Assembly (NCBI GenBank): GCA_964473815.1
Contig: CAYYQK010000001.1
Location: 881 to 64,880, forward strand
Reading direction: 5' to 3'
DNA from: an uncultured Candidatus Saccharibacteria bacterium
GTDB taxonomy: Bacteria; Patescibacteriota; Doudnabacteria; UBA920
DNA length: 64,000 nt
In this document: positions 1-4,091 of the stretch, piece by piece
Layout of the letters: the number at the start of each line of letters is the position of its first letter
Position numbering within the stretch: the stretch's first letter is position 1
Position numbers and translations under genes: made by a program
Notes under the pieces: generated by a model
Database searches by the model: none
What the model saw: only the letters and a program-made list of their open reading frames with translations
Told to the model about the DNA's origin: nothing

Positions 1-1096
1 AATCCGGCGTGGAGAATGGCCTACGCTAGCTCCTTTTGGATATGTTAATAATTCAAAAACTAGGACTATTGAACCACATCCTTTTTTGGCAAAAGTCGTG
101 GTTAAGGCTTTCGAGCAATTTGCTACGGGAAATTATACTTACGAATCTTTAGCTTTGTATTTGCAGGAATTGGGAGTTGAAACAAAAAATCGCACACCTT
201 TGAGCAAACACTCTATTGGAAAGATGTTGATGAATAAAACTTATCTTGGGTTTACTAAGCATAAGGGGGAGTATTTTCAGGGGAATTTCCCAGCTATTAT
301 TTCGCCATTTTTATTTGAATCCGTACAAACAGTTTTAAAAAGAAAAACTAAGAAAAGAAAAAACAAACCACAAAATAACTTTCCTCTTACTGGTTTATTA
401 AATTGCGGTGAGTGCGGTTGTGCAATTACAGCTTGTTGGATAACTGGAAAATCCGGTGGTATCTACCGTTATTATCGTTGCACAAAAAAGAAAGGAAAAT
501 GTTCACAAGGAACATTGCAAGAAAAGTATTTAGTGGAACAGATCAAAGATAAATTATCTACAATTCTTATCCCAGATTACTGGACGGATAAAATGTTCGA
601 ACAAGTTGAAGTCTGGGAAAAAGAAGATGTTGAATCTACAAAGGTATATAAAACAAATTTGAAAACAAGAATGGAGGAGAATGAAAATACTCTAAATAAA
701 TTAGTTAGTGCATATCTTGATGGTGATATCCCCAAAGAAAATTATCTTCTCAAAAAAGAAGAATTATTAACTCGGAAACAGATTTTGAGTCAAAATCTTA
801 AAGATTCCCGAGGAGGAGGACAAAGTTGGATTAAACCCCTCAAGGAGTGGATTTCAGTAACAAAAAATGCCACTTTCGTGGCATCTTCTGGAAATTTAAG
901 TGAACTTAGAGAAATTGTTTTTCAAGTTGGATTAAACCCCCAACTTGTGGATAAGACTGTACAATTTCGTTTCCGCCCGCCCTGGAGTTCAATCCTAGAA
1001 ACATTGGGTGAAACTGCAATTCTCAATATTCAAAATGATAAAAAAGAATCTTCTGAAATTAAAAAAATTAAAGAAAGTTCCTTCTGGTGGAGATGA
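1..1096 (+). CDS. large serine recombinase, 5'-truncated by window edge (recombinase domain + Cys-rich zinc-ribbon C-terminus)
   Basis: Frame 2 is open from nt 2 upstream of the listed TTG at 86 (..IRRGEWPTLAPFGYVNNSKTRTIEPHPF..). CGECGC..YRYYRC zinc-ribbon motif. K/E-rich coiled-coil tail typical of large serine recombinases. Confidence 0.65.
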   Translation, partial: IRRGEWPTLAPFGYVNNSKTRTIEPHPFLAKVVVKAFEQFATGNYTYESLALYLQELGVETKNRTPLSKHSIGKMLMNKTYLGFTKHKGEYFQGNFPAIISPFLFESVQTVLKRKTKKRKNKPQNNFPLTGLLNCGECGCAITACWITGKSGGIYRYYRCTKKKGKCSQGTLQEKYLVEQIKDKLSTILIPDYWTDKMFEQVEVWEKEDVESTKVYKTNLKTRMEENENTLNKLVSAYLDGDIPKENYLLKKEELLTRKQILSQNLKDSRGGGQSWIKPLKEWISVTKNATFVASSGNLSELREIVFQVGLNPQLVDKTVQFRFRPPWSSILETLGETAILNIQNDKKESSEIKKIKESSFWWR

Positions 1097-1584
1097 TGGG
1101 AGTTAAACCCATGTCCAAAACCTTTCAATCACCACATTGTTCACAAGATTAGTCCGTTAAATTACCAACACGCTAACCAACGGACAACGAAGCGTATTGG
1201 GTGATATATTAAATTTCGGTTGCGCGATATATATCAGACCGTACAACTATATCTTCAAAATAAACCAGCAAATCTGATGTCGAAGCAACATCAGCACTGG
1301 GCATTTACGCTATATTAGGCAAATGCAGGCGCGAAGCTAGCATTAGAAAATGCAGCTACGACCTTGTTCCATGCGTTTTCACGTATGTTTGCCTTCAGGA
1401 TTTACGAGCTTGTAGGCTGGCTCGTCTTGCATATATCGTGATGTTAAAGTCCTGTCAAAATCCGGCATCCCCATAGAATGCTCATTTGAGCACTCATAGT
1501 TTGCCACAAAAATGACTGTTTGTCAAGGTATTTGCTTCTATCGTCCGTCTTTCTTATACTTAACAAAAAAGGAGCGACTGATAT

Positions 1585-1986
1585 ATGCAAAAGCCGTACT
1601 GGATCATACTTGCTTACGCCGCCGCCGCTATCGGGATCCTATGGATTACCAAACGAATTCCCAATAACAAGACTCCAAACCTGAACTCTAAAATAGTTCT
1701 TCATCTCGTTGCGATTTTGTTGATCGGAACTGTTTGGTATAACCTTCGCGGACTCGACATCTCATTGTATGGTTTTGACCATTCCGCAGCTTTGTTGCTG
1801 GTCACCATTTTTTCTTATGGACTGCTGTTGCCACTCGTCTCCATTGTAAAAGTGCGTTGGGATGGACGATGGGCGAATGTCATTCATGACTCACCAACAG
1901 ATGCTGACGATTCCGATAGAGATGAAACCGAAAGCACTGACACGGACCCCACTTTGCGCAAGTTACGGAAATTACTTAGGGATTAG
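1585..1986 (+). CDS. hypothetical membrane protein with acidic C-terminal tail
   Basis: AAGGAG RBS 8 nt upstream. Three hydrophobic helices followed by a D/E/T-rich tail. Rho-independent terminator follows. Confidence 0.5.
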   Translation: MQKPYWIILAYAAAAIGILWITKRIPNNKTPNLNSKIVLHLVAILLIGTVWYNLRGLDISLYGFDHSAALLLVTIFSYGLLLPLVSIVKVRWDGRWANVIHDSPTDADDSDRDETESTDTDPTLRKLRKLLRD

Positions 1987-2001
1987 ACCTCTGGTTTGTT
2001 T

Positions 2002-2039
2002 AAAAAAGCCGCTCGATGTTTGAGCGGCTTAGTTTTTTA
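2002..2039. terminator. bidirectional rho-independent terminator
   Basis: Hairpin aagccgctcg-atgttt-gagcggctt, flanked by an A-run upstream and a T-run downstream. Lies between convergent genes. Confidence 0.6.
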
Positions 2040-2040
2040 T

Positions 2041-2490
2041 CTAGCGACGTTTTGACGCAGTTTTCTTCGGAGCAGATTTTTTTGCGCCTACTTTAGGCTT
2101 CGCCGCTTTTGCAACTTTAGTAACTTTTTTTGCAGCTTTTGGTACAACTTTTTTAACTACTGCAGAGGTAGCAGCAAGTTCTTTAGAAATTACATCCCAG
2201 TGGCCTTTTAGTTCAGCAGCTACTGCTGCTAGTTCTGGTGCGCTGACATTTTTCAAACCTTTGTAATTTTTTGCTGCTGCATCCACCACTTTGTTATAAG
2301 AATCTTTGGTAGCTTTAGTAGTTTTTTCTAATCCTGCTAAAACATCATTCTGCATATCGCCAACCCATTTGGCCACTTTTTTGCGGTTCTTAGAATTTTT
2401 ACCAGTTAACATGTAAACTCCGGCTGCAGCCGCTGCTAAGGCAGCAACACCAGCACCAACTGCTATCGCTTGCTTTTGTGATTTTTTCAT
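2041..2490 (-). CDS. Lys/Ala-rich histone-H1-like protein with N-terminal membrane anchor
   Basis: N-terminal hydrophobic A/G/V segment. C-terminus is KKV/AKK/PKK repeats (low complexity, H1/AlgP-like). Confidence 0.5.
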   Translation of the reverse strand: MKKSQKQAIAVGAGVAALAAAAAGVYMLTGKNSKNRKKVAKWVGDMQNDVLAGLEKTTKATKDSYNKVVDAAAKNYKGLKNVSAPELAAVAAELKGHWDVISKELAATSAVVKKVVPKAAKKVTKVAKAAKPKVGAKKSAPKKTASKRR

Positions 2491-2504
2491 TGCTTTAAAA
2501 TTAA

Positions 2505-2783
2505 TTATTTTTTAGTTTTAGGTGAGATTTTGCGGCGGCGTAAACTGCTAATAAATGTTAGCACTGCCCCGAGGTTAAAGCCTCTCTTGCGAATATTTTC
2601 TCGTAAGTTCGCAAAATCTTCAGTAACAAATTCTGTGGCGCGCTGCGCAGTGCGAGCTACTTCTTTAACTGTTCGCACAAAAATAATCACATACACCAAA
2701 GCGACAGCCAGGAGCACAGAAATAATTATCACTGCAATGCCAGTGATAATAAAGAAAACATCAACTAAAGAAGAATCGTGCAT
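2505..2783 (-). CDS. small membrane protein, hypothetical
   Basis: One long TM helix followed by a basic tail. No homology recognised. Confidence 0.4.
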   Translation of the reverse strand: MHDSSLVDVFFIITGIAVIIISVLLAVALVYVIIFVRTVKEVARTAQRATEFVTEDFANLRENIRKRGFNLGAVLTFISSLRRRKISPKTKK

Positions 2784-2850
2784 AAATGTAGTATATTTTT
2801 AGTATATCACACCGTTTCTGAAATTATTGTGTTGATATGCTGTGTAAATG

Positions 2851-3414
2851 TCACCGTGCATATTTGCTGATAATTTCTTTCAGAGTCTGCTCATACTGGG
2901 TGCGAATGGTGTCGTCGCGTCCAGCTTCAATAATTTCATCATTGTTGTCGGTAGCAGCTGCCGTCCAGTTGTAAGAACCCGAAACATAACCTTTGTCCGT
3001 GACCACGGCCTTTAGGTGCATAATGTAGTTGTGATCGTTCATTGCCACGGGAATGCCGGCACTACGGAGTTCATTTACTAAACTGCGTTGCGTTTCAATT
3101 TCCGCAGATTGCTTTTTGTCGACAATTCCTTCTACAGTTAAGCCGCGGTGCTTGGCTGCTAGAAGCGCATCTTTAATATCATCACGAGTAAAAGTGTAAA
3201 CGGCAAAATAAACAAACTTTTCCGCATCCTGTATGGTGTTGATGACCTGGTCGTTCGCACGGGTGTCGTGGTTATAATAAACTTTAACCTGTCGCTCGCT
3301 TGCCGGCTTGTAATGATAGGTATAGTAAAACTGACCGCTTATTGCGATGAGTAAAATAATGATAACTAAATAAACCTCATCTCGCTTGAATCTCATGTCT
3401 TTATTGTACAACAA
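2851..3414 (-). CDS. phospholipase D / Nuc-like HKD-motif nuclease family protein (single HKD domain, N-terminal TM)
   Basis: HLKAVVTDKGYVSGSYNWT matches HxK(x4)D..GS.N of the PLD superfamily. N-terminal signal anchor. Confidence 0.65.
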   Translation of the reverse strand: MLYNKDMRFKRDEVYLVIIILLIAISGQFYYTYHYKPASERQVKVYYNHDTRANDQVINTIQDAEKFVYFAVYTFTRDDIKDALLAAKHRGLTVEGIVDKKQSAEIETQRSLVNELRSAGIPVAMNDHNYIMHLKAVVTDKGYVSGSYNWTAAATDNNDEIIEAGRDDTIRTQYEQTLKEIISKYAR

Positions 3415-3461: not shown

Positions 3462-3899
3462 TTAACGATCAGTAACCCCGCGAGTCTCGCGTTTATCGTC
3501 ACGCTGTTTGATATATTCGCGCTTGTCAGCTTTTTTACGACCAAAGCCAATACCAATTTTTATTTTTATCAAACCGCGGTTGGCAACGTACATTTCCATC
3601 GGCACAATAATAGAACCTTTTTCTTTTCCAACCAGGGCGTTAAGTTCCGATTGCTTCAAAAGTAATTTACGAGTTTGGGTGGGCTCGTAATTATCTTGTT
3701 TAGCATATTTGTATGGACCGATGTGCGCACCAATTAAAGTTGCACTTTTGCCAGACACTTTTACATAACTTCCTGCAAGTGACACATTACCTTCTTTCGC
3801 AGCCTTCACTTCGGGGCCTGACAATATCAAACCAGCATCAATTGTGTCCCTGATGTCATAATCGAATTTAGCTCGTTTGTTAATTGCTAGCGCTTTCAT
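3462..3899 (-). CDS. smpB: SsrA-binding protein SmpB
   Basis: Conserved SmpB motifs (KRAKFDY, GLILSGPEVKA, basic C-terminal tail). Typical ~145 aa size. Confidence 0.9.
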   Translation of the reverse strand: MKALAINKRAKFDYDIRDTIDAGLILSGPEVKAAKEGNVSLAGSYVKVSGKSATLIGAHIGPYKYAKQDNYEPTQTRKLLLKQSELNALVGKEKGSIIVPMEMYVANRGLIKIKIGIGFGRKKADKREYIKQRDDKRETRGVTDR

Positions 3900-4017: not shown

Positions 4018-4091
4018 TGGTGGACCGGACGGGAATCGAAGCCGTGAAGACTGGGTGACAAGCCTGTCTCGCCCTACCAGGGACCCGGCCC
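4018..4091 (-). ncRNA. tRNA-like structured element A (degenerate): 7-bp acceptor stem, TTCGATT T-loop, encoded A-CCA 3' end, no canonical anticodon arm. Followed by a hairpin + U-run terminator at 3927-3943.
   Basis: Seen on the minus strand: GGGCCGG..(T-loop TTCGATT)..CCGGTCC-A-CCA. The closing pair of the T-stem is C.C. The anticodon region is replaced by an extended bulged hairpin (GACAGG/CTTGTC). Shares an upstream motif with element B at 12473-12548. Confidence 0.3.

Follow-up and report, generated by a model that had tools for sequence, protein, structure and literature searches.

We analysed a 64,000-nt stretch of DNA, referred to here as the window, from an uncultured bacterium deposited as Candidatus Saccharibacteria (GTDB lineage Patescibacteriota; Doudnabacteria; UBA920; assembly GCA_964473815.1, contig CAYYQK010000001.1, positions 881 to 64,880 of the forward strand). 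The left end of this window is likely the integrase-proximal end (attR) of a small integrative element located at the 3′ end of ssrA, the gene for transfer-messenger RNA (tmRNA). In the mechanism we propose, a large serine recombinase (LSR) encoded by the element would recombine the element's attP with the last bases of ssrA acting as attB, and the crossover would fall within CCACCA. Because of this crossover position the tmRNA would be kept intact and only its native terminator would be displaced, and the recombinase reading frame would continue past the junction, antisense to the acceptor end of the tmRNA. The element itself would lie to the left and mostly outside the window, with its promoter region, an upstream copy of the integrase tail in inverted orientation and whatever cargo it has. 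Members of the recombinase family would likewise act at the 3′ ends of tmRNA genes and of many different tRNA genes. The data show the identity of the genes, their overlap, the presence and absence of the insertion among relatives, the association across the family and the architecture of the repeat, whereas we infer the recombination chemistry, the exact position of the crossover and the role of the inverted repeat.

The recombinase gene, its inverted repeat and the end of ssrA

An open reading frame (ORF) that is cut by the window start occupies positions 2–1096 (+) and matches the Pfam families Recombinase (PF07508, 1.5e-12) and Zn_ribbon_recom (PF13408, 7.1e-10). The window contains the 3′ 1096 nt of this LSR gene (1–1096, +), equal to 364 codons plus the stop, and the Resolvase part lies outside it. 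A look-up of the exact 133-aa protein encoded on the other side of ssrA led us to a contig, L001, that is identical to the window over 11,986 nt, with window position 1 at L001 953. On L001 the full LSR gene spans 516–2048 and encodes 510 aa with Resolvase (PF00239), Recombinase and zinc-ribbon domains according to Pfam. This confirms the statement of an earlier note, made on this DNA from the sequence alone, that the recombinase is truncated by the window start. The motif YARKSTEEDD lies near the N-terminus, and R10 and S12 are kept in at least 90% of 25 aligned homologues. By its domain order and its catalytic serine region, the window recombinase is a large serine recombinase. The nearest solved structure is the SPbeta LSR YokA/SprA, which is a distant match (E 6e-10). 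When we looked at the zinc ribbon for a coiled-coil insertion of the kind that controls directionality, residues 172–235 of the window ORF gave a weak helical match to Mt_ATP-synt_D that was below the cut-off.

Directly beyond the recombinase is a complete tmRNA gene at 1085–1472 (–), called by ARAGORN with a tag peptide and matched by Rfam RF00023 at 120.1 bits (gathering score 47) over model positions 1–374. The earlier note had treated 1097–1584 as an unusually long non-coding spacer in which an attachment site might sit. Most of this interval is ssrA itself, and the junction is at the last six bases of ssrA. A hairpin that had been singled out there (ctgatgt-cgaagca-acatcag) is present at 1274–1294 but is an internal helix of the tmRNA. 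The acceptor stem reads GGGGAUG/CAUCUCC with a G3:U70 pair, and the RNA ends in CAUCUCC-A-CCA. The 3′ CCACCA corresponds to 1085–1090 and lies inside the last codons of the LSR gene (TGG TGG AGA TGA, with the stop TGA at 1094–1096), such that the two genes are convergent and overlap by 12 nt. Because the end of the LSR gene overlaps the CCACCA end of the tmRNA, the element boundary is probably at about 1085–1090, with the element to the left and mostly outside the window. A TGGTGG core (= CCACCA) is common to the occupied junction, the inverted internal site described below and the unoccupied sites of relatives, and comparison within the tmRNA group narrows the core to TGGTGG. This comparison of sites points to 1085–1090 as both the crossover core and the right boundary (attR), and L049, L065 and L038 have equivalent cores of 3–11 nt. 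At the occupied site the target tmRNA is still intact, being full length and retaining its 120-bit score, G3:U70 and tag ORF. The element also appears intact, with a full 510-aa ORF and arms that are 100% identical.

These arms form a 123-nt perfect (100%) inverted repeat that was found by a repeat search on L001 and by blastn of L001 against the window. The right arm (IRR) is at 968–1090 of the window. The left arm (L001 121–243) is an inverted copy of L001 1920–2042, which is window 968–1090, and lies 1676 nt upstream, outside the window. The right arm makes up the last 123 nt of the recombinase frame, encodes a poorly conserved C-terminal tail and ends with the CCACCA of the tmRNA.

Homologues of the window LSR number 7576 at E ≤ 1e-10, and those that are named are proteins of Patescibacteria, Parcubacteria or Paceibacteria. 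A scan of species-representative genomes found 594 relatives, of which 80 loci were returned, and our counts for the family rest on these loci. We detected the inverted repeat, formed by the recombinase 3′ tail and its upstream copy, in 69 loci. The arms are 107–146 nt long (median 128), and their identity within an element has a median of 99.1% (n=60), a mean of 97% and a range of 82.6%–100%, with 37 at 98% or more. Between related elements the arms have a mean nucleotide identity of 65%, compared with 77% for the recombinase core. Arm mismatches are spread evenly along the length, and the G+C content of the arms is 55% vs 45% in the gene core. The repeat coincides with the non-conserved C-terminal tail of the ORF. 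Its sequence is apparently free to change, yet the two copies change together.

We considered whether the upstream arm is simply a 5′ untranslated region that pairs with the 3′ end of the mRNA. In L004, L005 and L144, 0.8–3 kb of other genes lie between the arm and the recombinase and the arms are nonetheless 95–100% identical, so that an RNA panhandle is not a general explanation. The inverted repeats are compatible with autoregulation by way of the site that overlaps the promoter, with inversion of a segment, or with cargo exchange by homologous recombination on the arms. As a separate observation, a GC-rich motif (GCTTGCCCCACCC.C.C..TGCGCG) lies just inside the upstream arm at L001 259–283, L004 312–336 and L005 ~275–300. 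The GCTTGCCCCACCC motif is common to three tmRNA-type elements with extra DNA between the upstream arm and the recombinase.

Targets of the family and sites with and without the recombinase

Nearly all of the 80 loci are from Patescibacteria lineages or unclassified bacteria, and a few are from metagenome-assembled genomes (MAGs) under other names. A convergent tRNA or tmRNA gene lies at the outer end of the right arm in 62 of the 69 inverted-repeat loci according to ARAGORN, and Rfam adds one. This gene overlaps the outer end of the arm by 3–9 nt in 58 loci (3–6 nt in 57), and in four of the 62, where the repeat is cut short, it lies 11–36 nt beyond the arm. By contrast, no tRNA gene was found within 400 nt of the left arm in any of the 69 loci. 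The targets are tRNA-Glu (17), Ser (17), Ala (7), Arg (5), Gly (2), Leu (2), Lys (2), Val (1), Pro (1), 'Stop(tta)' (1) and tmRNA (7). Recombinase clades follow the target in part, with target switches, and some MAGs have two copies at different tRNA genes. The sequence that different elements have in common ends at the tRNA or tmRNA end and extends to the left of the recombinase.

Two loci contain a gene that ARAGORN calls 'tRNA-Stop' (anticodon tta), at L077 1832–1905 (–) and L148 9543–9617 (+), and the one in L077 is the target of the recombinase element. These genes may be mis-registered tRNA-Lys genes or suppressor tRNAs. L148 also has the opposite arrangement at 9240–11770, where a tRNA-Ala gene on the same strand is directly upstream of the upstream arm and recombinase. 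The recombinase tail there continues into a left-flank sequence in reverse complement. The two arms are only 73% alike, and several tandem partial copies of two tRNA genes occur just upstream.

A prophage origin was considered and dropped because no relatives of the window LSR were found in IMG/VR viral contigs. Our search of the literature found no description of this LSR family or of its repeat architecture. The family is apparently a very large, undescribed one in Patescibacteria.

To compare occupied and unoccupied sites, we used a degenerate pattern to scan metagenomes for tmRNA 3′ ends of the window type, and 58 loci were returned. The window LSR family is present at 5 of these 58 tmRNA ends. 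In at least 13 of the 58, a terminator hairpin follows directly after CCACCA and there is no recombinase; in L103, for example, the tmRNA is followed directly by the terminator. The unoccupied L101 and L111/L141 share with the window the lysine- and alanine-rich (K/A-rich) gene, the phospholipase D-family (PLD) gene and smpB to the right of ssrA, and L101 and L141 also share argS. The unoccupied L129 shares the PLD gene. Among occupied relatives, L145 and L146 have a recombinase 66% identical to that of the window and are syntenic with it over PLD-smpB-argS-ileS-recO, and L004 also keeps the right-hand gene order of the window. The left side of the site can be compared in one pair of loci. The distance from the 3′ end of a Peptidase_C39 gene to the tmRNA gene is ~40 nt in the unoccupied L129 vs 2.79 kb in the occupied L145, and the extra DNA in L145 consists of a 149-aa ORF, a 475-nt non-coding region, the upstream arm and the recombinase. 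This presence and absence among relatives shows that the insertion is on the recombinase side and that the smpB side is chromosomal. The earlier suggestion of a mobile-element edge near ssrA/smpB, marked by the recombinase, is thus supported by the unoccupied sites of relatives and by the 2.8-kb difference between L129 and L145, and the comparison with relatives lacking the insertion that the note recommended could be made with L101, L129, L111/L141 and L103.

In about 10 of the 58 loci a second LSR group lies at this tmRNA 3′ end or within a few hundred nt of it; it is 22–26% identical to the window LSR (L097, L098, L108, L112, L113, L119, L124, L126, L137 and L139). Here ~0.3–1 kb separates the end of the recombinase match from the tmRNA 3′ end downstream of it, and in most of these loci the interval up to CCACCA contains a shared conserved sequence.

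The relatives carry varied genes. L050 and L065 have the same arms and different cargo. The cargo at L147 241–3432 is a type IIG restriction-modification enzyme with an XRE regulator. L144 2569–6349 contains a reverse transcriptase with a bAvd-like gene, resembling a diversity-generating retroelement, together with TrwB/TraG-like and FtsK-like ATPases. In L005, conflict-system genes (CTD10/MC6-MC7/DUF2326) lie at 348–3053 between the upstream arm and the recombinase. L149 1–7309 is a chain of three segments (cargo, recombinase and cargo) in which every segment has an inverted repeat of its own (119 nt, 99%; 132 nt, 88%; 149 nt, 99%). MutH, a DNA methyltransferase, an AAA_15/AAA_21 ATPase and XRE regulators are among its cargo.

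Proposed attachment sites and competing explanations

In what follows, LF stands for the flank to the left of the upstream arm, rcLF for its reverse complement, I for the arm formed by the integrase tail and Y for the chromosomal flank on the outer side. Across the family, LF has the conserved consensus TTC(G/A)AAA..GTTCG.GCAAAGG.TA..A.T and resembles a promoter reading into the upstream arm (TTGACG-17-TAAAGT at L001 82–110). It contains a GTTCG-like motif that becomes GGTTTTAG where the T-loop of the target tmRNA has the unusual form GGGTTTAAC. Compared with the T-loop of the target, this motif is further from the repeat boundary by 5–6 nt in all 44 scorable loci (6 nt in 37 and 5 nt in 7). 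Rutherford et al. reportedly found in 2013, with the LI integrase, that the zinc-ribbon motif of attP lies ~5 bp further from the crossover than that of the attB half-sites, and the 5–6-nt shift seen here would fit such a geometry of attP vs attB. The universal T-loop sequence (GGTTCGA, or GGGTTTAAC in the window tmRNA) is probably one recognition motif of the LSR.

Three loci, L049 (CP060229.1) and L065 (OY970382.1), both complete chromosome records, and L038, have a second perfect inverted repeat of 226–266 nt, the right arm of which is LF. This repeat overlaps the recombinase repeat by 7–11 nt. Each of these loci therefore has three sites with one 7–11-nt core, namely Y-core-rcLF, I-core-rcLF (inverted) and I-core-tRNA. 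These three arm combinations are the ones expected of attL, an attP-type site and attR. From the arm combinations and the 5–6-nt motif shift we infer that the window LSR would recombine attP with attB at a central dinucleotide. A second repeat of at least 100 nt occurs in 15 loci, where it encloses 1.4–8.9 kb of varied cargo, and left ends in relatives are defined by the core plus the rcLF arm.

Several features of the left flank were noted in passing. A small XRE-type helix-turn-helix (HTH) gene is often divergent beside LF. At L001 4–31 (–), which is the contig end and ~920 nt to the left of window position 1, there is an outward near-consensus promoter (TTGACA-16-TATGAT, 11/12 matches) that is kept in L004 and L005, and relatives have a small XRE-type HTH gene in that direction. 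The left flank of tmRNA-type elements also has ~100 nt of AT-rich sequence with many TAGTA/TTAGT repeats (L007 ~245–350; L145 9350–9460), which could be a protein-binding array or a replication origin.

Of the top 120 homologues, ~17% have a recombinase tail that continues into rcLF and not into a tRNA gene. We considered these tails as proof of circular forms and set this aside. Many come from contigs of ~2 kb whose assembly path is ambiguous because of the perfect repeat, and the downstream arm in L147 and L065 does not belong to the element itself. The observed integrated structure would arise in one step from a circle that carries the site in two inverted copies, and the inverted upstream copy is a possible second site of such a circle.

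Some observations count against the idea of an integrative element at ssrA. At the left junction compared between L129 and L145 no core repeat was recognisable, the intergenic sequences being too divergent. The left end of the window's own element is outside view; every recovered contig that encodes the exact proteins breaks off 515 nt before the integrase gene, ~120 nt to the left of the upstream arm. More generally, 120–175 nt lie between the left contig end and the upstream arm in L001, L004 and L005, and many others terminate within an arm. LF is itself a repeat arm in many loci and short-read assemblers stop there, so the left part of the window's element was not recovered. Examination of the sequence upstream of the window, as advised in the earlier note, thus gave the rest of the integrase gene and the left arm on L001 but did not reach the left end of the element. 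In the contigs available we saw neither an excised circle nor an unoccupied site from the same population, and we identified no recombination directionality factor. To our knowledge, the standard serine-integrase cycle does not include an intact attP-like site within an integrated element. Two identical inverted sites on a circle should also make both orientations common, whereas 62 loci are convergent and one (L148) is clearly opposite.

Other explanations of the same repeats were weighed. One that we put forward tentatively, and think somewhat improbable, is that the family consists of chain elements in which integrase and cargo segments, each with its own 100–270-nt inverted repeats, are joined through a 3–11-nt core from the tRNA or tmRNA end. 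A single LSR reading the T-loop half-site would both integrate the element and invert or exchange segments in a manner resembling the 2-micron plasmid or a shufflon, the internal attP-type site at the promoter would be an operator, and these elements would be an undescribed class in Patescibacteria. Another idea is that the enzyme is a resident DNA invertase that flips the segment between the 123-nt inverted repeats, as in Hin/Gin or shufflon systems, and that the arrangement at ssrA has been inherited vertically. It would account for the location of the recombinase gene between inverted repeats, as with hin, and for arms that are near-identical within a locus (97%) yet 65% identical between elements, with evenly spread mismatches. 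The chaining of neighbouring segments with their own arms through the short core only (L049, L065, L038, L149), the opposite orientation in L148 and the ~17% of homologues whose tails run into rcLF also agree with it, although many of these odd tails are on 2-kb contigs with an ambiguous path. However, inversion with vertical descent does not explain syntenic relatives without the recombinase, nor the presence of the family at ten kinds of tRNA or tmRNA gene with target switches inside clades, nor the single orientation in 62 of 62 tRNA-adjacent loci, complete chromosome records included. Inversion and insertion are compatible and it is only as the complete explanation that the invertase fails; as such we consider it unlikely.

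The arrangement suggested in the earlier note, with the attachment site in 1097–1584 and the genes to the right as cargo next to smpB, is very improbable. The variability of the 133-aa membrane protein gene between relatives is in its favour. By contrast, a complete tmRNA gene fills 1085–1472, the order of the K/A-rich gene, PLD, smpB and argS is kept at unoccupied sites, and the sequence shared between elements ends at the tRNA or tmRNA end and continues to the left of the recombinase, where the element lies. The note had also suggested a search for direct repeats matching 1097–1584. No long direct repeat marks the ends, and the prominent repeats are inverted. The sole candidate was a weak 30-nt match (73%) between L001 48–77 and 2039–2068 that corresponds to a T-loop-like motif; it is inverted in L004 and is thus not an att duplication. 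Even less credible is the idea that faulty assembly produced the inverted repeat and the contig breaks, the recombinase being an ordinary stand-alone gene. In its favour, the coverage of L001 is low (its contig name gives cov 2.07) and many contigs end inside or just past the repeats. However, 69 independent assemblies show this architecture, among them CP060229.1, OY970382.1 and contigs of 0.4–0.8 Mb, the arm identity ranges from 82.6% to 100% rather than being uniformly 100%, and the arm sequences differ from locus to locus. An insertion at the 3′ end of ssrA remains the reading we favour.

Chromosomal neighbours and comparison with known systems

Judged by gene order in relatives, the genes at 1585–3414 are on the chromosomal side, upstream of ssrA, and are not cargo of the element. 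For the three genes at 2041–3414 this follows from the same gene order in relatives with an unoccupied tmRNA site. The gene nearest to ssrA (1585–1986, +), taken from the ORF list, encodes the 133-aa membrane protein, which ends in an acidic tail and matches no Pfam family. This gene is variable, as L004 has a NYN-domain gene in its place, L145 has nothing there, and it is unmatched in unoccupied relatives. Next is the K/A-rich protein (2041–2490, –; 149 aa, 21% K and 21% A), also with no Pfam match, which the earlier note had called histone-H1-like. The composition is as described, but the N-terminus is a hydrophobic helix (AIAVGAGVAALAAAAAGVYML), and the protein is more likely to be membrane-anchored than a nucleoid protein. 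It is paired with a gene absent from that note, which encodes a 92-aa DUF948-like membrane protein (2505–2783, –) with a weak Pfam match to DUF948, and the pair is kept in L004, L101 and L111/L141. The PLD-family protein (2851–3414, –) matches PLDc_2 (E 1.9e-22) and has one H.K....D motif, in agreement with its earlier description as a single-HKD nuclease-family protein. As also stated previously, smpB, which encodes the protein partner of tmRNA, is just beyond (3462–3899, –; Pfam SmpB, E 1.8e-41), ~2 kb from ssrA.

Just upstream of smpB and on the same strand we observed an unannotated tRNA-like gene of 71–74 nt at 4018–4091 (–), with counterparts at L004 6440–6511 (–), L141 2375–2445 (–) and L111 12–82 (+). 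It has G3:U70 in the acceptor stem and a standard T-arm, followed by a hairpin and U-run. G3:U70 is the identity pair of alanine tRNA and tmRNA. The 3′ end has an encoded ACCA in the window and L141, and CCAUAA in L004. ARAGORN made no call for this gene, and the Rfam tmRNA model matches both ends only, at 18–39 bits. In three versions the acceptor positions 4–6 covary and the anticodon-like arm is not kept. The gene could encode an SmpB-binding mimic of the tRNA-like domain of tmRNA, or an Ala-accepting tRNA-like RNA.

These results correct the annotation of the window by locating an unannotated tmRNA gene, placing the boundary at its 3′ end and assigning the neighbouring genes to the chromosome. 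Perfect inverted repeats also explain why short-read assemblies recurrently break at such loci. Patescibacteria have tiny genomes, are largely uncultured, and their means of gene exchange are poorly known. If our reading is correct, this would be among the first well-defined mobile-element families in this group, and the cargo of relatives (restriction-modification and other conflict-system genes, transporters, enzymes) suggests transfer of accessory genes between Patescibacteria. Serine integrases, which in nature mostly target protein-coding genes, are the main tools for insertion of large DNA. The family would then offer new integrases whose landing sites, the ends of tRNA and tmRNA genes, are near-universal, being present in every cell, and are apparently found through recognition of the T-loop.

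The order of Resolvase, Recombinase and zinc-ribbon domains in the window LSR is that of the phiC31, Bxb1, A118/LI and SPbeta SprA enzymes. The family also resembles the LSRs of phages and integrative elements in having a conserved Arg/Ser motif, a short crossover core and a displaced half-site motif. Unlike in phage-type LSRs, the target is the 3′ end of tRNA or tmRNA genes, the ORF overlaps the target gene and an intact inverted attP-like copy lies upstream with near-perfect arms of 107–149 nt. It also differs in being without viral relatives in IMG/VR, and its identity to the second LSR group at tmRNA sites is 22–26%. According to Mageeney et al. 2020 (PMC7192596), use of tRNA or tmRNA genes by a serine integrase had been unreported, and they found only 14 candidates among 297.

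Islands of tyrosine integrases (Islander-type elements and tycheposons) likewise occupy tRNA or tmRNA 3′ ends, leave the gene functional and have the integrase at the island edge (PMC4383910; 10.1101/2020.12.28.424599). In Prochlorococcus, an LSR replaces the tyrosine recombinase in 27 of 937 elements, counting tycheposons and cryptic elements together (10.1101/2020.12.28.424599). Unlike these islands, the window enzyme belongs to the serine family and inverted rather than direct repeats dominate. An identity block of tens of bases that restores the target gene is also absent; with a crossover in the last 3–11 nt of the target, there would be nothing to restore.

The Hin/Gin/Cin switches, the R64 shufflon and Min resemble the window family in that inverted sites bracket the recombinase or the segments and form chains with alternating site orientation. 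By contrast, the enzymes of these systems are small serine recombinases or, in the case of Rci, a tyrosine recombinase, and act on sites of ~26–31 bp, whereas the window family consists of LSRs. The arms here are 107–270 nt long and segment-specific, with a tRNA gene at one end of the chain and a nearly fixed orientation. There is some likeness to the 2-micron plasmid and its FLP recombinase, as a hypothetical circle excised from an L049/L065-type locus would hold two inverted recombination regions of ~350 nt that separate the integrase and cargo segments. FLP is, however, a tyrosine recombinase, enzyme and host are unrelated, and the flanking copies in L149 need not match. Taken together, the window element is of the serine-integrase integrative type, with an unusual class of target and an unusual repeat structure.

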